5,961 bases of DNA from a virus (Duplodnaviria; Heunggongvirae; Uroviricota; Caudoviricetes), in IMG/VR virus record IMGVR_UViG_2657245112_000002, positions 1 to 5,961 of that record. One strand, written 5' to 3'. The notes under the pieces are model-generated. The model was given only the letters and a program-made list of their open reading frames with translations, was not told the origin of the DNA and searched no databases. The translations under genes were made by a program, and so were the position numbers. Positions 1-5,961 of this stretch are shown piece by piece. Position 1 is the first letter of the stretch. Each line of letters opens with the position of its first letter.

Positions 1-8
1 CTCAACAA

Positions 9-156
9 TGAATTTTGTGATGCGGTGCCTGGTGCCTCCAGGTGACGTTAACCAGTTAACAATTAACGCCGGATACAGAGAATCCACCCATAACACTGTT
101 TTTGGTTTTAACTGTTCCGCGTGCGCTGAGCCGCATTCACCGCATCACAAAATTCA
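9..156. repeat. 19-bp perfect inverted repeat pair (9-27 and 138-156) flanking a 110-bp spacer with nested palindromes
   Basis: tgaattttgtgatgcggtg at 9-27 is the exact reverse complement of caccgcatcacaaaattca at 138-156. The spacer holds palindrome cctgg-tgcct-ccagg (28-42) and GTTAAC-ca-GTTAAC-aa-TTAAC (47-65). Function unknown. Confidence 0.8.
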
Positions 157-558
157 CTTTTAAAAAAGGGCGGCAGAGCAGTCACGGAGTAAAACTGATA
201 CCGCCAAATGTCACCAGAATATTGATAACAGAGGGCGTTGTAGCGGGGTTGTCACTTAAGCGTATGGTCAACCTGACAACCCGGTGTCCTCAACTGGGGA
301 AGGAATAACCCCGCCATACTTACCGCCGCGCCATTTCGCGGAGTGCCACAACCGGAAGCGCACGTTCGAAGAAATCTAACGACAAGCCTTCTAAGGGAAA
401 GAGCTTCGCCGTACGCTTTCGCGTTATGCCCTGACTTTTCAGGGAAATATCCTTTCAGTAAACTGTCAGTACCGGATTCTTATCCGTGTCCGGCGCACGA
501 CCACACGTGACAGCGTGTTGGTCTCCATTTTTAACCCAGAACCTCAATGGAGGATAAA

Positions 559-768
559 ATGCCAAACAAAAAAAGAAATCCGCTTATTGAAAAACAGATT
601 GAATGCCTGGTAAATCAACTCAGGCAATCAGGGTTATTAAAAACTCATTCAGAGTTGAGGCTCACAGAATCAGCATTCGACGATAAATTAAATAATGTCC
701 TTTATAATGGCATTATTGATTTTAATCGTTCTGTTGGTCGCCGCGGCCCTGCTGGTGTTTCCTTATAA
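559..768 (+). CDS. hypothetical small protein, 69 aa (73 aa if the ATG at 547 is used)
   Basis: ORF-track frame 547..768. GGAGGA at 549-554 lies 4 nt upstream of ATG 559; stop TAA 766-768. AT-rich like the neighbouring 216-aa gene. No motif recognised by eye. Confidence 0.4.
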   Translation: MPNKKRNPLIEKQIECLVNQLRQSGLLKTHSELRLTESAFDDKLNNVLYNGIIDFNRSVGRRGPAGVSL

Positions 769-1419
769 TTACCAGTCAATCCAGAGTGGACCGTGTTCAG
801 CGTAAATATAACTGTACACATCCAGATTATATTTGTGGTCTGTTAAGAACAGGCCGCAAATACATGCCGAAGCTTCCAGTGCAGCGGCTCTGTTACTGAA
901 TAACCATGTAGCAACATTCCAGCGTTTTTCTGCATCCCAGTCTTTCTCAAGGCCTGATACCATGAAGAAACCGTTAGTGTTGCCATCAAATAATTCTGTT
1001 TCCAAATTTTTAAGCAATGCCTGATGGACTCTTGCCAGGTATTCCGCCGGAATTTCGCCACGAATTCTGATGAGATTGTCATAAACAAACATGTTCCCCG
1101 CATATGGCGATTTTTCTTTCTTGTTTTTTAAACCAGCATCATGAGCAAACTGATCAATTTCTTCTTCCGTTGGTTTCGTATTGATGTTTTGCGCTGTCGT
1201 TTCTGCAATTTTATTTGCCACACTCTCTGAGTCGTGTTTATTTATAGACGCACAGAAATACAATCCGGTAAACGCATCGCGCACATTACGAGCCATATTA
1301 TCAGTGTCTTTTTTCGTTACCGATTCCAATTCAAGTTCGTTCAGACGATGACGAAGTGTGTGTGCTGCAATCTCCTGGATTGAAGGAGGTAAATCTTTAA
1401 ATTCCATCGTCAACCTCAT
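769..1419 (-). CDS. hypothetical protein, 216 aa (212 aa from ATG 1407); unknown function, candidate prophage cargo/defence protein
   Basis: Longest ORF on the minus strand here. ATG 1419..1417 overlaps the TAA of the upstream small gene (TAATG); alternative ATG 1407..1405 is preceded by GAGG with a 6-nt spacer. Sampled stretches are about 35-40% GC versus about 60% in a sampled stretch of the DnaC-like gene. Hydrophilic; no catalytic motif recognised by eye. Confidence 0.75.
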   Translation of the reverse strand: MRLTMEFKDLPPSIQEIAAHTLRHRLNELELESVTKKDTDNMARNVRDAFTGLYFCASINKHDSESVANKIAETTAQNINTKPTEEEIDQFAHDAGLKNKKEKSPYAGNMFVYDNLIRIRGEIPAEYLARVHQALLKNLETELFDGNTNGFFMVSGLEKDWDAEKRWNVATWLFSNRAAALEASACICGLFLTDHKYNLDVYSYIYAEHGPLWIDW

Positions 1420-1571
1420 TAGTCGGAGTTTCTTGCTAACCAGCGATGCGCGCCAGCTTCGGTTTTAAACGATTTGCTTTTGGTATACGTCATGGCGGTG
1501 AATGTGCCGTCCTGATTGGGAAACACGCCACATACCAGAGATTCGTTGTTGCCAAGATCGATAGTATCCAT
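1419..1571 (-). CDS. small prophage protein, 50 aa, YdaF/DUF1391-like (family assignment from memory)
   Basis: Below the ORF-track size cutoff; found by manual translation: MDTIDLGNNESLVCGVFPNQDGTFTAMTYTKSKSFKTEAGAHRWLARNSD. ATG 1571..1569 is preceded by GAGG with a 5-nt spacer; stop TAA 1421..1419. Resembles the ~51-aa small proteins found near the repressor in E. coli Rac-like prophages. Confidence 0.55.
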   Translation of the reverse strand: MDTIDLGNNESLVCGVFPNQDGTFTAMTYTKSKSFKTEAGAHRWLARNSD

Positions 1572-1756
1572 GTTGACCTCATTTACCCTTAACGCCGGGT
1601 CGCGGAACTAAAAACCTGCTGCGCTGTTATACAAAGTGTTCCCGCCGTCATGTTCATACGCCTCGGGCTGGCTACTTAACCCCTGACCACTGCCGGGTAA
1701 CTCGAAGTATTGCCCTGCGTTCTGTTGAATGGGGTGGGTTGGTGAAACAAGGATGC

Positions 1757-1794
1757 ACTTTTAAAGTTATTATGTCAACACTTATAAAGTTAGG
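1757..1794. promoter_or_regulatory. putative left operator/promoter: two operator-like palindromes flanking a perfect TTGACA on the minus strand
   Basis: ACTTTtAAAGT at 1758-1768 is identical to the 11-mer at 2822-2832 in the repressor/cro intergenic region. A one-mismatch copy ACTTAtAAAGT lies at 1782-1792. Minus-strand TTGACA at 1778..1773 sits between them; the matching -10 is weak (CATCCT). Confidence 0.4.
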
Positions 1795-1802
1795 TTGTGA
1801 GC

Positions 1803-1829
1803 AACAAAAACCGCCTCGAGATGAGACGG
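1803..1829 (-). terminator. intrinsic terminator downstream of the ParE-like toxin gene
   Basis: Minus-strand RNA CCGUCUC-AUCUC-GAGGCGG forms a 7-bp stem (one G-U pair) with a 5-nt loop, followed by UUUUUGUUG. The hairpin begins 13 nt after the toxin stop codon. Confidence 0.5.
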
Positions 1830-1842
1830 CCCTGTGAAAGGG

Positions 1843-2130
1843 TTAGTTCTGCTTGGGGAATTGGCGTCTGGCGTGTACTACACTCACGATCTCAATGCTT
1901 AAAGTGGCTACACGGTAAAGAATTATATAGTTAGGGTGAGCTACAATCTCACGCAAGCCAGGTACTCTGTCGCTTGGTGGGTATAAATACGGGTGTTCGG
2001 ATAACGGCAGCACACACCCCCTTAATCGCTGCCATAAGCGTTCTGCCGCATCTATGTCGAAACGAGCAATATAACTAGTTATATCATCTAGGTCGGTATC
2101 TGCGCTTTCAAGCCATAACACGGGTAACAT
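1843..2130 (-). CDS. parE2: ParE/RelE-superfamily type II toxin, 95 aa (ParE2-like)
   Basis: Sequence pattern typical of ParE toxins (…DLDDITSYIA…LREIVAHPNYIILYRV…IEIVSVVHARR). Start ATG 2130 lies 3 nt after the antitoxin stop, with GGAG inside the antitoxin 3' end. Symbol assigned from locus architecture, not exact sequence recall. Confidence 0.85.
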   Translation of the reverse strand: MLPVLWLESADTDLDDITSYIARFDIDAAERLWQRLRGCVLPLSEHPYLYPPSDRVPGLREIVAHPNYIILYRVATLSIEIVSVVHARRQFPKQN

Positions 2131-2133
2131 TTA

Positions 2134-2322
2134 CTACTTACTCCGTTCCTTGCGCATTTTAGCAAAGCGTTCTGCCATTCTGCGCTCAACCTCGTCATGG
2201 GGAATTGCTGGGCGCGGATTTGCAAGGCTCGCTGCTACTTTCGCACGCAGCCATTCGTTGTAACTGTTTTCTTGTTCAATGGTTTCGAACTCAGAAACCA
2301 TTGGTGAAAGGGCCGTATTCAT
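2134..2322 (-). CDS. paaA2: small antitoxin, 62 aa (PaaA2-like partner of ParE)
   Basis: The ORF track extends this frame to 2385, overlapping the repressor. The internal ATG at 2322..2320 is preferred: GGAGG lies 7 nt upstream and the repressor stop is at 2352-2354. Small, charged, immediately upstream of the toxin. Confidence 0.7.
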   Translation of the reverse strand: MNTALSPMVSEFETIEQENSYNEWLRAKVAASLANPRPAIPHDEVERRMAERFAKMRKERSK

Positions 2323-2351
2323 GGCACACCTCCGTCTGTGTATGGTGGTCA

Positions 2352-2759
2352 TTATGCTCGATGCCCTTTCCGGGCAGCGAGCCATCTTTCAATTGTGCGC
2401 TCCATTAACTCTTTTTTGTCTTTCATCTCCTGAAGCATTTGTCCCTGTTCTTCCTCTGGGAATGCACCAAATGTCTGAAGTAGCTCTCTTTGCTTCGGAC
2501 CTATTTTCATTGTGTCAGGTACCACAATCTGTTCGTCCTCACTTGGTGGCAACATAAACCAATATGGAGGGAATCCTGTTACTTCAGAAAGTTTATCAAG
2601 ATTAGCCATTGATGGGCTTGTGATGCCATGAACCCACTTTTGGACCGATTGTTGGGCAACACCTATTCTGCGGGCTAGTTCTGCTTGCTTAAGCCCTGTT
2701 TTTTCCAGCACCAGTTTTATCCGGTACGTGGTTATTTCAAGAGTGGTCATTCGCTTCAT
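2352..2759 (-). CDS. paaR2: XRE-family HTH transcriptional repressor, 135 aa (CI-like prophage repressor and TA regulator, PaaR2-like); no S24 peptidase domain
   Basis: N-terminal HTH signature (…LKQAELARRIGVAQQSVQKWVHGITSPSMANLDKLSEVTG…). The ~60-aa helical C-terminal tail is too short for a LexA-type autocleavage domain. Divergent from the Cro-like gene, first gene of the repressor-antitoxin-toxin operon. Confidence 0.8.
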   Translation of the reverse strand: MKRMTTLEITTYRIKLVLEKTGLKQAELARRIGVAQQSVQKWVHGITSPSMANLDKLSEVTGFPPYWFMLPPSEDEQIVVPDTMKIGPKQRELLQTFGAFPEEEQGQMLQEMKDKKELMERTIERWLAARKGHRA

Positions 2760-2866
2760 GCATTCATTTTACACAAAAAAAGTGTAGCCAGCACAATCAG
2801 CTTGAAAGTGTTGATAGTGTAACTTTTAAAGTGTATAAGTGGTGTCGATTGATTGGAGTTAGCGAT
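2760..2866. promoter_or_regulatory. divergent promoter/operator region between repressor and Cro-like gene (right operator equivalent)
   Basis: Rightward promoter candidate TTGATA (2811-2816), 17-nt spacer, TATAAG (2834-2839), then GGAG 2855-2858 and ATG 2867. Palindrome ACTTTtAAAGT (2822-2832) lies in the spacer; AAGTG-type half-sites recur at 2806-2810, 2829-2833 and 2838-2842. Leftward candidate: -10 TAAAAT (minus, plus coordinates 2771..2766) only 6 nt before the repressor ATG. Confidence 0.5.
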
Positions 2867-3145
2867 ATGCATAAATGTTTAAAAAATAAAATTCGCCAAA
2901 TAGGGTTATCCCAAGCGGGTGTTGCTCGCTTGATTGGGTTGCCACAGCAGGTTGTATGTCGATGGGTTAATGGGCAACAGGTCCCTGCATCAAGGGTTTT
3001 ACAACTATGTGAGATTATGGCGTGGACTGTCACCCCCCACGAGCTCCGACCAGATATTTACCCTAACCCAACCGATGGCCTGCCTTGTGGACGTAAGAGT
3101 ACAGCGAATGAATTACTGGCGGTGAACAATGAAAATCACACCTGA
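2867..3145 (+). CDS. ydaS: Cro/YdaS-like HTH DNA-binding protein, 92 aa
   Basis: ORF-track frame 2831..3145 starts at GTG. ATG 2867 is preferred because GGAG at 2855-2858 precedes it. HTH signature (…IGLSQAGVARLIGLPQQVVCRWVNGQQVPASR…). Divergent from the repressor. Symbol by position and family, not exact recall. Confidence 0.7.
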   Translation: MHKCLKNKIRQIGLSQAGVARLIGLPQQVVCRWVNGQQVPASRVLQLCEIMAWTVTPHELRPDIYPNPTDGLPCGRKSTANELLAVNNENHT

Positions 3146-3650
3146 ACAGGTTTGCGAGGCTCTGGATGCCTGGGTATGCAGACCAGGAATGACGCAGGAG
3201 CAGGCGACGATATTAATTACTGAAGCCTTCTGGGCTCTACAGGAACGCCCGAACATCGATGTTCAGCGTGTCACGCTTGATGATGGCGGGGTTGATCAGC
3301 GTGCGCTTGGCGTTAACCGGGTGAAGATATTCGAACGCTGGAAGGCTATCGACACCAGGGATAAGCGTGAAAAATTCACGGCGCTGATTCCGGCAATTAT
3401 GGAGGCTATCCGGATTAGTGATTTCAGGTTGTACCGCGAAATTACTGACGGAAAAAGCATTACGTACATGATTGCCGGGTTAAACAAAGAATATGGCGAT
3501 GTGGTGGAGTCCGGGCTGCTTTTTGCAGATCCAGCTGTTGTGGAACGTGAGACAGACGAGCTTATAGAAAAAGCAATCGCTTTCAAGCGTGCCTATCGTC
3601 ACCAGTACCAACAAAAAGCCGGATGGAATTATGAGCCTTCTTTTTGCTGA
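3129..3650 (+). CDS. ydaT: YdaT-like protein, 173 aa (proposed CII functional analogue)
   Basis: Overlaps the Cro-like gene 3' end by 17 nt. Occupies the cII position between the Cro-like and O-like genes, as in Rac/CP-933P-type prophages. Assignment is by position and size, not exact sequence recall. Confidence 0.6.
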   Translation: MKITPEQVCEALDAWVCRPGMTQEQATILITEAFWALQERPNIDVQRVTLDDGGVDQRALGVNRVKIFERWKAIDTRDKREKFTALIPAIMEAIRISDFRLYREITDGKSITYMIAGLNKEYGDVVESGLLFADPAVVERETDELIEKAIAFKRAYRHQYQQKAGWNYEPSFC

Positions 3651-4608
3651 ACGCCCGCTGGTTATAAACACACAGCTGGCGATGAAGATTGGTTTAAACG
3701 AAGCCATTGTGTTGCAGCAACTGCATTACTGGTTGAGGGATACCAGTTCCGGCATGGAATGTGATGGCGTTCGCTGGATTTACAACACAACGGAACAATG
3801 GCTGGAACAGTTTCCGTTCTGGTCAGAGTCAACGTTAAAGCGTGCGTTTGCAAGTCTGAAAGCGCTGGGGCTTTTGCGTAGCGAAAAGCTCAATAAATCG
3901 AAGCGTGATATGACTAATTTTTACACAATTAACTACGATAGCGCGCTTTTAGATGATGGCAAAGTGAACGAATCCATCGGGTCAAAATGCGCCACTCCAT
4001 CAGGTCAAAATGACACGATGGAAGAGGTCAAAATGAAACGTTCCATTGGTTCAAAACGGCCCAATGTCATCAGGTCAAAATGGCCCGATGATCCTACAGA
4101 GAATACAACAGAGAATACAACAGAGAATACAACAGAGAATAAAAAACTCTCTTGTCCGGACGCTTCGCAACCGGACGAGTTGACGGCTGAACAGGCGTTT
4201 TTAACCCGCCATCCTGATGCTGTTGTGTTCAGCGTGAAAAAACGCCAGTGGGGAACCCGGGAGGATTTGACATGTGCGCAGTGGATCTGGGGGCGGGTTG
4301 TAAACCTGTACGAACAGGCTGCCAGCGACGATGGAGAGATCACGCGACCGAAAGAGCCCAACTGGACGGCGTGGGCCAATGACGTGCGCACAATGCGGAT
4401 GCTGGATGGAAGAAGTCACAGACAAATTTGCGAAATGTTCAGCCGGGCACAACGGGATCCGTTCTGGATAAAAAACATCAAGAGCCCGGAAAAACTCCGT
4501 GAGAAATGGGATGAACTGGTTATTCGACTGTGGCGTGGTCCCGCGCAGCGTTGCGTGAATCATATTTCTGAACCGGATACCGAAATTCCGCCGGGTTTCA
4601 GGGGGTAG
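3631..4608 (+). CDS. replication initiator, lambda O-like architecture, 325 aa from ATG 3631 (339 aa from GTG 3589)
   Basis: Lies immediately upstream of the DnaC-like loader. Contains tandem DNA repeats in its central linker (…TENTTENTTENTTEN…), as oriLambda lies inside gene O. Start ATG 3631 overlaps the YdaT-like gene end by 20 nt. Stop TAG 4606-4608. Confidence 0.8.
   Translation: MSLLFAERPLVINTQLAMKIGLNEAIVLQQLHYWLRDTSSGMECDGVRWIYNTTEQWLEQFPFWSESTLKRAFASLKALGLLRSEKLNKSKRDMTNFYTINYDSALLDDGKVNESIGSKCATPSGQNDTMEEVKMKRSIGSKRPNVIRSKWPDDPTENTTENTTENTTENKKLSCPDASQPDELTAEQAFLTRHPDAVVFSVKKRQWGTREDLTCAQWIWGRVVNLYEQAASDDGEITRPKEPNWTAWANDVRTMRMLDGRSHRQICEMFSRAQRDPFWIKNIKSPEKLREKWDELVIRLWRGPAQRCVNHISEPDTEIPPGFRG
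3978..4093. repeat. five direct iterons, 23-24 bp period, core GGTCAAAATG (putative origin initiator-binding sites)
   Basis: Core at 3980-3989, 4003-4012, 4026-4035 and 4073-4082, with degenerate copy GGTTCAAAACG at 4048-4058. Units also share CCAT/TCAT at their 3' ends. Confidence 0.6.
4096..4143. repeat. four tandem 12-bp repeats ACAGAGAATACA (three perfect, fourth ACAGAGAATAAA), A-rich; putative unwinding element
   Basis: Directly visible perfect tandem repeat. It encodes the TENT repeats of the O-like protein and is followed by aaaaaa. Confidence 0.9.
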
Positions 4609-4614
4609 CGCATC

Positions 4615-5355
4615 ATGAAAAACATTACGTCAGGTGGTGTTCTGGCAAGAGTCAGCAGATTTGTGCCGCAGGATGCAATCCCTCCGTACCGTACGGTGAC
4701 GGAGTGGCGGGAATGGCAGCTTGCTGAAGGGCGTAAGCGAAGCGAGGAGGTTAATCGTCTGAATCATCAGACGCGGGTTGAAAAAATCATTAACCGCTCC
4801 GGTATCCAGCCGCTTCACCGGAAGTGTACGTTCGGTAACTACCGGGTGCAGAACGATGGTCAGCGCCATGCCCTGAGTCAGGCGAAATCCATTGCGGCAG
4901 AGCTGGAAGGCGGCTGTACGAATTTTGTGTTCAGTGGCCGGCCTGGCACAGGAAAAAACCACCTGGCGGCGGCTATTGGCAACCACCTTCTGGCGAAAGG
5001 TCGCAGTGTGATTGTGATAACAGTGGCGGATGTGATGCTGGCGTTACATGGCAGCTACGACAACAAAAACTCGGGCGAAAAATTTTTGCAGGGATTGTGT
5101 GGCGTTGACCTGCTGGTACTGGATGAAATTGGCATGCAACGGGATACGCGTAATGAGCAGGTCACGCTGAATCAGATTGTTGACCGCAGAACGGCATCGT
5201 TACTCAGTGTGGGGATGCTGACAAATCTTAACCATGCAGCGATGAATACACTTCTCGGCGAGCGGGTGATGGACCGCATGTCCATGAACGGTGGTCGCTG
5301 GGTGACGTTTAACTGGGAGAGCTGGCGTCCGAACGTCAGCCAGCACAGGAACTGA
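4615..5355 (+). CDS. DnaC-like replicative helicase loader (AAA+ ATPase), 246 aa
   Basis: Walker [18 protein letters not shown] and Walker B LLVLDEIG. Collinear similarity to E. coli DnaC as recalled (…NRSGI.PLH..C.F.NYRV…GMLTN.N…[10 protein letters not shown]…). GGGGG at 4601-4605 precedes ATG 4615 and overlaps the O-like stop. Confidence 0.9.
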
Positions 5356-5384
5356 GAAGTAATTTTTATCCGGAGGAAGTTTTA

Positions 5385-5961
5385 ATGGAAACCGTATTGC
5401 ATGCACTGAAAGCGATGGGTAAAGCCAATTCTGTTGAACTGGCGGCGCGGCTTGATATCAGCCGTGAAGAAGTTCTCAACGAACTGTGGGAACTCAAAAA
5501 AAATGGCGTTGTTGATAAAACGGGTCACACCTGGTTTCTGGCTGGTGAAGGTGAATCCGGGGTAACCGAAGAGCAGCCAGCACAGTCTGAAGTACCGGAT
5601 GTGCTGACCGGGGAGGTCGAACAAAAAGTTACCGCGGACATGATGATTGAGTTTATCTGTCAGGATGGGGCTAAAACGTGTGAGGAACTGGCGGATAAGT
5701 TCGGTGTTAGCATTCGCAAGGTTGCTTCCACGTTGGCGGTCGTAACAGCAACGGGGCGCCTGGCACGCGTAAATCAGAACGGTAAATTTCGTTACTGCAT
5801 ACCGGGCGCTGATTTACCGGCAGAGCCGGAAGCTGCATCCGTAGCGGAAACCGATGGTAAAGCCTTTCCTCAGCCAACAGGTGTTGCGTTACCAGTCCAG
5901 GAAACGACGACACAGGAAGAAATAAAAACTGAAAGTGTGGCGGTCACAGTGCAGTCACAGC
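5385..5961 (+). CDS. hypothetical protein, partial (3' end beyond window), two tandem winged-helix-like repeats
   Basis: Not in the ORF track because it runs off the window. ATG 5385 is preceded by GGAGGA (5372-5377); no in-frame stop to 5961. Translation begins [43 protein letters not shown]…; a second similar segment reads [42 protein letters not shown]. Confidence 0.6.

Follow-up and report, generated by a model that had tools for sequence, protein, structure and literature searches.

A probable CI/DicA-like repressor operon with a PaaA2-ParE2-type toxin-antitoxin pair in the rex slot of a lambdoid Escherichia coli prophage

The stretch of DNA analyzed here comprises positions 1 to 5,961 of the IMG/VR virus record IMGVR_UViG_2657245112_000002 (5,961 nt in total, in the following called the window). 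On its minus strand it carries three co-directional open reading frames (ORFs) in the order repressor, antitoxin, toxin. Together they very probably constitute the operon of a CI/DicA-like repressor with an addiction-type toxin-antitoxin (TA) pair in the rex slot, with competition from the Cro-like YdaS acting as the switch. The identities of the genes, their arrangement, the layout of the repeats, and the distribution of the system come from the present analysis, whereas toxicity, addiction, bistability, and the leaderless mRNA are taken from experiments on the homologous system of the prophage CP-933P of E. coli O157:H7 (PMC8630535, PMC9986795).

Structure of the three-gene operon

The following features make up the operon:

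2352-2759, minus strand: repressor gene (CI/DicA analogue), 135 aa from the ATG at 2759, assigned by ORF and Pfam HTH_3
2134-2322, minus strand: antitoxin gene of the PaaA2 type, 62 aa, assigned by phmmer against PDB entry 3zbe_A and by Pfam PF21217
1843-2130, minus strand: toxin gene of the ParE2 type, 95 aa, assigned by phmmer against PDB entry 5cw7_B and by Pfam ParE_toxin
1803-1842, minus strand: intrinsic terminator of the repressor-TA operon, assigned by RNA folding and sequence

The repressor and antitoxin genes are separated by 29 nt (2323-2351), the antitoxin and toxin genes by 3 nt (2131-2133). The antitoxin start is an internal ATG of an 83-aa ORF, and RefSeq annotates the same coding sequence of 189 nt. 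A Shine-Dalgarno sequence (GGAGGTG) lies ahead of this ATG within the 29-nt gap. The lengths, coordinates, gaps, and common direction of the three genes had been given correctly in an earlier note on this DNA, which left the minus strand unstated.

Directly after the toxin stop codon, two hairpins (1842-1830 and 1829-1811) are followed by the U-run UUUUUGUU at 1810-1803. By direct folding, the minimum free energy of this RNA is -15.3 kcal/mol, with a z-score of -2.46 against shuffles, which bears out the terminator that the earlier note had placed right after the toxin. A scan for consensus terminators had no minus-strand hit beyond the toxin, although direct folding gives the hairpins and the U-run. 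Furthermore, a 16-nt direct repeat (GGGTTAGTTCTGCTTG / GGGCTAGTTCTGCTTG, 94%) was observed at 1840-1855 and 2672-2687. One copy lies across the toxin stop codon and the other in the part of the repressor gene coding for the helix-turn-helix (HTH) domain; the repeat is possibly due to chance.

The toxin-antitoxin pair

The toxin matches the crystallized ParE2 of E. coli O157:H7 (5cw7_B) with a phmmer E-value of 1.2e-57 and is 93% identical to ParE2 from the O157:H7 genome (locus L002). It also covers positions 1-89 of 89 of the Pfam profile ParE_toxin (PF05016) with 58.8 bits at a cut-off of 23. The antitoxin matches PaaA2 (3zbe_A) with a phmmer E-value of 4.3e-34 and is 95% identical to PaaA2 from the same genome locus. 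Its sole Pfam hit is PaaA2 (PF21217) with 70.2 bits at a cut-off of 27. Hence the assignment of the two proteins to the ParE and PaaA families, previously made without database searches, holds for both. The antitoxin is small, has no DNA-binding domain, and is encoded directly upstream of the toxin ATG.

Judged by the substitution pattern, both TA genes are under purifying selection. The pair differs from the O157:H7 copy by 23 synonymous and 9 non-synonymous changes, with a ratio of non-synonymous to synonymous substitution rates (dN/dS) of 0.096; for the toxin alone dN/dS is 0.087. Across the genes compared in this study the values range from 0.06 to 0.12.

The homologous pair of O157:H7 has been studied by experiment. 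ParE2 is toxic when expressed alone and induces the SOS response, PaaA2 of CP-933P is Clp-labile, and the CP-933P locus stabilizes an unstable plasmid and is in this sense addictive (PMC8630535).

The repressor protein

The repressor matches Pfam HTH_3 with 51.2 bits at a cut-off of 23, and only HTH families are found among its Pfam matches. An AlphaFold model built on an alignment of 29 sequences (mean predicted local distance difference test score, pLDDT, of 83) is all-helical without any beta strand. It consists of a five-helix HTH domain (residues 6-69), a low-confidence or disordered linker (70-87), and a helical hairpin (88-98 and 102-134). The C-terminal hairpin is predicted to be an oligomerization domain; PaaR2, the regulator of the CP-933P system, is reported to form octamers (PMC8630535). 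In a Foldseek search of the model against the PDB, only HTH domains of the Cro/CI type were retrieved, e.g., P22 c2 at a root-mean-square deviation of 1.0 Å. SinR, an HTH protein with a helical oligomerization tail, aligns to the model over 95 columns.

No Pfam match to a Peptidase_S24 domain was obtained for the repressor, and only 66 residues lie beyond the HTH domain. The profile matches and the model support a repressor without a cleavage-competent domain, so that RecA-stimulated self-cleavage would be unavailable to it. This agrees with the expectation of the earlier note that induction by the lambda RecA-cleavage route is unlikely. PaaR2 likewise lacks this route and has been reported to be unresponsive to mitomycin C (PMC8630535).

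An alternative route through an SOS-controlled antirepressor received no support. Perfect LexA boxes (CTGT-N8-ACAG) are absent from the 67 kb covering the prophage, with imperfect boxes not searched, and neither an antirepressor nor another CI candidate is annotated in the prophage.

The repressor was compared with three relatives. With PaaR2 of O157:H7 (123 aa, starting with MQKKE), BLASTP aligns only residues 81-135 (53%, E 4e-16), and no BLASTP similarity is detectable between the N-terminal halves of the two proteins. An orthology to PaaR2 was therefore rejected, as only the C-terminal 55 residues are alike and similarity does not extend over the full length. In contrast, the repressor shares 65% identity along its entire length with the regulator found in a second O157:H7 system of three genes (locus L168). 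With DicA of E. coli K-12 it aligns across both the HTH and the C-terminal domain (BLASTP, 34% over 109 aa, E 2e-17). The NCBIfam model of DicA (NF007257) is matched over profile positions 8-131 of 135 with 63.6 bits, which is below the cut-off of 101. By these comparisons, the regulator belongs to the type of DicA and the second system and not to PaaR2. Compared with its counterpart in locus L003, the repressor gene has a dN/dS of 0.058.

The match to PaaR2-PaaA2-ParE2 with YdaS/YdaT that had been recognized from the architecture can accordingly be retained for the gene arrangement and the TA pair, but not for the regulator, which resembles PaaR2 in residues 81-135 only.

Putative operators and promoters

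The following control elements were predicted:

2760-2866, no strand: OR-like (right operator) control region from the repressor gene to ydaS, from motif search and invariance in seven loci
1750-1791, minus strand: OL/PL-like (left operator and promoter) region just downstream of the terminator, from an inverted copy of an OR segment
2772-2784, 2798-2810, and 2821-2833, no strand: candidate 13-bp operators in OR (CAC-N7-GTG-like), from motif search
1756-1768 and 1779-1791, no strand: candidate operators in OL, from motif search
2811-2816 (TTGATA) and 2834-2839 (TATAAG), plus strand: predicted rightward promoter with a 17-nt spacer, from sequence
2771-2766 (TAAAAT), minus strand: predicted leftward -10 element of the repressor gene, six bases before ATG 2759, from sequence
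1778-1773 (TTGACA) and 1755-1750 (CATCCT), minus strand: predicted leftward early promoter with a 17-nt spacer, from sequence

We infer these operators and promoters from motif patterns and from their conservation. The operator pattern CACTTTWAAAGTG, with up to three mismatches, has six matches in the window compared to 1.96 expected. Five of the six lie in two short regions, starting at 2772, 2798, and 2821 in OR and at 1756 and 1779 in OL, with centre-to-centre spacings of 26, 23, and 23 bp. In addition, a 31-nt segment of OR (2806-2836) recurs inverted at 1753-1783 (81%), just past the operon terminator. The OL/PL-like promoter faces a DUF1391 gene and, further on, DicF. Divergent promoters among repeated candidate operators, together with a second set at the leftward early promoter, correspond to the layout of a lambdoid immunity region.

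In seven loci with repressors 87-100% identical, the operator and promoter blocks as well as TGTAAAATGAATGCATGAAGCGA are invariant, whereas the spacers between them vary. The OL sequence is kept in locus L003, which has the same type of repressor. In O157:H7 with PaaR2, an unrelated sequence stands at this place and both flanks are homologous.

The distance between the -10 element of the repressor gene and ATG 2759 equals the GATAAT/6 nt/ATG spacing of paaR2 and is invariant in the seven loci. The mRNA of paaR2 was found to be leaderless by experiment (PMC8630535).

Distribution and mosaic structure

DNA homology to O157:H7 comprises the left flank from 1582 to about 1735 and the TA cassette from about 1855 to 2323 (roughly 93%). 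Homology is lost at OL and at the terminator, and again from the start of the antitoxin gene to the right, as far as the O gene. When the whole window was compared with phage records by megablast, only mosaic partial matches with at most 36% coverage were found.

Of 5,426 complete E. coli genomes examined for the distribution, 623 have a PaaA2/ParE2-type TA cassette and 593 a regulator region of the PaaR2 type. The regulator region of the window type was found in 37 genomes, 15 of them at ≥95% identity, and that of the second system in 567.

Among the IMG/VR records the cassette stands behind several types of regulator, among them the PaaR2 type, that of the window, types of 157 aa and 131 aa, and tandem pairs of a PaaR2-like and an XRE-type regulator. 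All regulator types ahead of the cassette share a C-terminal domain of about 50 aa, and from locus to locus toxin identity does not follow regulator identity. In the 78 IMG/VR loci with relatives of the window repressor, which are not independent samples, an antitoxin and a toxin follow downstream in 67, other cargo or none in nine, and an antitoxin only in two. In one of them (L144) the repressor relative, matched at 654-1052, is followed by an apparent HicA-like toxin and HicB-like antitoxin in place of PaaA/ParE, as judged from the sequences alone, and in L152 and L153 a DUF1391 gene directly follows the repressor. By these comparisons, the cargo in the slot behind the repressor varies between loci.

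Homologues of the repressor in Klebsiella, Morganella, and a metagenome contig are also located opposite YdaS/YdaT, but their downstream genes are unrelated and comprise no TA pair. The presence of such homologues at the same position argues that the regulator serves primarily as a prophage repressor and only secondarily as a TA regulator. The idea that the C-terminal domain occurs only with a TA pair was rejected, since the Klebsiella, Morganella, and other homologues carry the domain without one.

Four-gene versions were observed in the IMG/VR loci L065-L071 and L073 (about 1970-3290 in each). Here, a PaaR2-like regulator of 123 aa with METKEIRR at its start precedes an XRE-type relative of the window regulator, with PaaA and ParE behind them. 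In most of these loci the XRE-type ORF has 153-173 aa and runs into the antitoxin start; L065 resembles a degraded four-gene version.

Two further loci are worth describing. In E. coli Z1323CEC0013 (L003:2661-3133), repressor type and OL are as in the window. The antitoxin C-terminus (from residue 45 on) and the N-terminal half of the toxin differ from the window, and the rest of the cassette is nearly identical. These parts were presumably swapped together, as expected of an interacting pair. The second one is Escherichia phage Evi (LR597642.1), which carries PaaR2-PaaA2-ParE2; its ParE2 ORF is present on the minus strand at L004:5130-5408 but unannotated. As this copy resides in a phage genome, the module is not confined to cryptic prophages.

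Proposed function and alternative interpretations

The region very probably represents the leftward (lysogenic) operon in the immunity region of a lambdoid prophage, with a repressor of the DicA family at the position of lambda cI. This repressor would be translated from a leaderless mRNA that begins at ATG 2759 and would bind the three 13-bp operators in OR and the two operators in OL beyond the terminator. Its binding would shut off the rightward ydaS, ydaT, O, and DnaC-like genes as well as the leftward early genes (DUF1391 to DicF, dicB, exo, xis, and int). PaaA2 and ParE2 would be encoded on the repressor transcript, in the slot of lambda rexA-rexB. With PaaA2 as an unstable antitoxin without DNA-binding domain, the TA pair would rely on the prophage repressor for its transcriptional control, and it most likely serves as an addiction module which makes it costly to lose the prophage or its immunity region. 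Bistability would arise as the repressor competes with the Cro-like YdaS, and the CII-like YdaT would feed back on repressor synthesis.

Several points weigh against this interpretation. The start codon of the repressor gene is ambiguous, as RefSeq places it at ATG 2750 (132 aa) instead of ATG 2759 (135 aa). The shorter start is also called in many database homologues. The longer form with a leaderless mRNA is favored because the TAAAAT/6 nt/ATG geometry is conserved and invariant in the seven loci. The operator consensus is formed by five sites with one to three mismatches each, and 4 of 200 shuffles gave as many pattern matches in total, but without the clustering. The leftward -35 element is weak, and the PL -10 element CATCCT fits the consensus at three of six positions. 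Furthermore, the YdaT operator of CP-933P (TTGATTN6AATCAA) has two matches in the window at three mismatches compared to 4.2 expected. A search around the ydaS/ydaT junction gave no inverted repeat, and the PRE or YdaT site for a CII-like feedback was not located. Regarding the toxin, its last strand differs from ParE2 at six residues and is followed by three extra C-terminal residues. Toxicity and neutralization by the TA allele of the window are extrapolated from CP-933P, and DNA binding, transcription start, and inducibility of the window allele are likewise extrapolated.

The cassette might mainly exclude other phages by abortive infection, as rexAB-like cargo, instead of acting in addiction or stabilization. 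This is considered unlikely, and such a role would be compatible with an addiction role. The location in the rexAB slot (PMC9986795), the expression from the lysogenic operon, and the variable cargo of this slot, which in other loci holds a HicA/HicB-like pair, unknown proteins, or nothing, would fit an exclusion function. However, neither toxin nor antitoxin matched a defense model in PADLOC, the CP-933P locus stabilizes an unstable plasmid, and the CP-933P work consulted reports no defense phenotype (PMC8630535).

It is quite improbable that the three genes form a self-contained three-component TA system, in which the HTH protein is the split-off DNA-binding half of an antitoxin and controls only its own operon, while immunity is decided elsewhere. 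The O157:H7 system was first described as a three-component TA system (Hallez et al., 2010, as summarized in PMC8630535). The TA pair directly downstream of the repressor relatives in most of the IMG/VR loci and the C-terminal regulator domain kept beside the TA pair across different N-terminal types are in line with that description. In contrast, the repressor gene of the window occupies precisely the place of cI/dicA, with Cro-like and CII-like genes diverging from it, and copies of its candidate operators lie at a PL-like site facing the early-left genes. Moreover, homologues occupy the same position without a TA pair, the protein is a full-length homologue of DicA, and the annotation of the prophage offers no other repressor candidate.

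Finally, a decaying relic with non-functional genes is hardly credible: the characterized homologue does reside in a cryptic prophage (PMC8630535) and E. coli genomes hold many defective lambdoid prophages, but in the window all ORFs are intact with dN/dS values of 0.06-0.12, ribosome-binding sites, terminator, and operators are conserved, the prophage is annotated with a full set of structural, lysis, and replication genes, and the PaaR2-type version is found in the deposited genome of phage Evi.

Comparison with known systems

The prophage repressor operon with TA cargo proposed here has its closest described counterpart in paaR2-paaA2-parE2 with ydaS-ydaT of CP-933P/Sp12 in O157:H7 (Hallez et al., 2010; Jurenas 2021, PMC8630535; PDB 3zbe and 5cw7), where paaA2-parE2 takes the place of rexA-rexB and PaaR2 that of CI (PMC9986795). 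Both systems have the same order of the three genes and the same site between a PL-like site and a divergent ydaS/ydaT/O/DnaC-like operon. The TA DNA is about 93% identical, the C-terminal domains of the regulators share 53% over 55 aa, and both regulators lack S24. In contrast, the gaps between the genes are 20 and 1 nt in CP-933P compared to 29 and 3 nt in the window. The terminator and the PL region are replaced. The operators of CP-933P are GTTTAGTAA repeats (PMC8630535), whereas those of the window are CAC-N7-GTG-like. YdaS and YdaT are only 25% and 31% identical to those of the window, from which the YdaT operator of CP-933P is absent. CP-933P is cryptic, whereas the prophage of the window looks complete.

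The likeness to CP-933P therefore concerns the architecture and the TA pair and not the immunity specificity, because the N-terminal domain of the regulator, the operators, YdaS, and YdaT differ. Since the operators deviate from the GTTTAGTAA repeats and the YdaT site of CP-933P is missing, the element of the window should be heteroimmune to CP-933P.

The second system of O157:H7 (L168, strain 86-24) shares with the window the HTH_3 type of the regulator, its C-terminal domain, the gene order, and the DUF1391/dicB neighbors. Its regulator is 65% and its YdaS 47% identical to the window proteins. However, the antitoxin and the toxin reach only 63% and 68% identity, and the antitoxin C-terminus and the toxin N-terminus belong to another variant. 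A homologue of the three-component system has been described on CP-933M of O157:H7 (PMC8630535), and L168 is presumed to be this homologue, paaR1-paaA1-parE1, a name assigned by elimination. As far as the comparisons tell, in the window a PaaA2/ParE2-type cassette stands behind a regulator of the DicA/second-system type.

The dicA-dicC region of Qin in K-12 shows a similar setting. DicA also has 135 aa, lies opposite a Cro-like gene and upstream of ydfA (DUF1391), DicF, and dicB, and the chromosomal integration site is ydfJ in both prophages. However, there are no TA genes between dicA and ydfA, and the window repressor scores below the DicA cut-off.

Similar to lambda cI-rexA-rexB, the window has a repressor gene with two cargo genes on one predicted transcript, followed by a terminator and then PL/OL. 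The divergent PRM/PR promoters among three operators have candidates in the window, and a leaderless repressor mRNA is proposed. In contrast to lambda, the window repressor has neither an S24 autocleavage domain nor the RecA route, the cargo is a TA pair instead of Rex, and members of the YdaS and YdaT families stand in for Cro and CII.

Genomic setting and neighboring genes

The chromosome of E. coli 2012C-4227 contains the window at 100% identity. There it is part of an apparently complete lambdoid prophage located at ydfJ, the Qin site. Starting from int, xis, exo, and dicB, the prophage continues with the window, other early and delayed-early genes, the antiterminator Q, tRNAs, and holin/lysozyme/Rz, followed by terminase, portal, capsid, and tail genes, J, lom, tail fibers, and nleC. 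From int to the DinI-like gene beside ydfJ, pseudogene flags are limited to small gene fragments; ydfJ itself is truncated and likewise flagged. The prophage (L001 and L005) spans 2,051,014 to about 2,098,800 of NZ_CP013029.1 and directly adjoins the tail end of another prophage carrying DUF1076 genes. The type III effector gene nleC lies near its right end.

Further features of the window are:

2867-3145, plus strand: ydaS-like gene (Cro analogue), 92 aa, Pfam YdaS_toxin with 41.3 bits, PHROG 35 (transcriptional repressor)
3129-3650, plus strand: ydaT-like gene (CII analogue), 173 aa, Pfam YdaT_toxin with 26.3 bits, PHROG 163
168-219, minus strand: DicF small RNA gene, Rfam RF00039 with 77 bits at a gathering score of 48
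769-1419, minus strand: ORF of 216 aa (212 aa in RefSeq), PHROG 2151 with an E-value of 1.9e-147

The product of the ydaT-like gene matches the CII-like transcriptional activator PHROG 163 with an E-value of 2.7e-41, and a sequence search of the PDB with this protein gave no match. After ydaS and ydaT, genes for an O-like initiator and a DnaC-like loader follow, divergent from the repressor gene. The O-like replication gene contains a perfect tandem repeat of 12 bp (ACAGAGAATACA, 3.8 copies, 4096-4141, plus strand) encoding a TENT repeat. By analogy with the lambda O gene, the ACAGAGAATACA copies probably are the iterons of a phage origin.

The leftward early operon contains DicF further downstream, as does that of Qin in K-12, and dicB lies just past the window in the host genome. 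For the 216-aa ORF, no Pfam or NCBIfam hit was obtained. Its first ~50-75 residues also match four other PHROGs, which suggests a shared N-terminal module on variable C-termini.

Implications for the PaaA-ParE cassette

The TA pair and the logic of the switch have already been characterized, and the window adds a natural variant rather than a new system. It has been proposed that the TA pair guards the immunity region of CP-933P against recombination. It is possible, although on balance somewhat doubtful, that the PaaA-ParE cassette is instead a portable cargo exchanged by recombination among heteroimmune lambdoid phages. This tentative view is based on the occurrence of the cassette behind at least four regulator types, all with the same C-terminal domain of ~50 aa, on the incongruent similarities of regulators and toxins, and on the loci with two tandem regulators before the TA pair.

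If this view is correct, the cassette would not simply lock one immunity region in place, as proposed for CP-933P, but would spread selfishly as cargo of the rex slot, and recombination would join at the C-terminal coding segment and at the left flank, both of them conserved. In the case of the window, its carrier would be a seemingly intact prophage that has an SOS-independent switch as well as the effector gene nleC.

A PaaA2/ParE2 cassette together with a DicA-family repressor of different operator specificity would provide a ready heteroimmune partner to CP-933P. This bears on the control of the TA pair, which may depend on the repressor's DNA-binding domain or solely on its position and C-terminal domain. 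In addition, as the prophage looks complete, the inactivation of repressors lacking S24 could be asked in an inducible phage instead of a cryptic remnant. Finally, the finding of one cassette behind several repressor types bears on the idea that the TA pair guards the immunity region against recombination.

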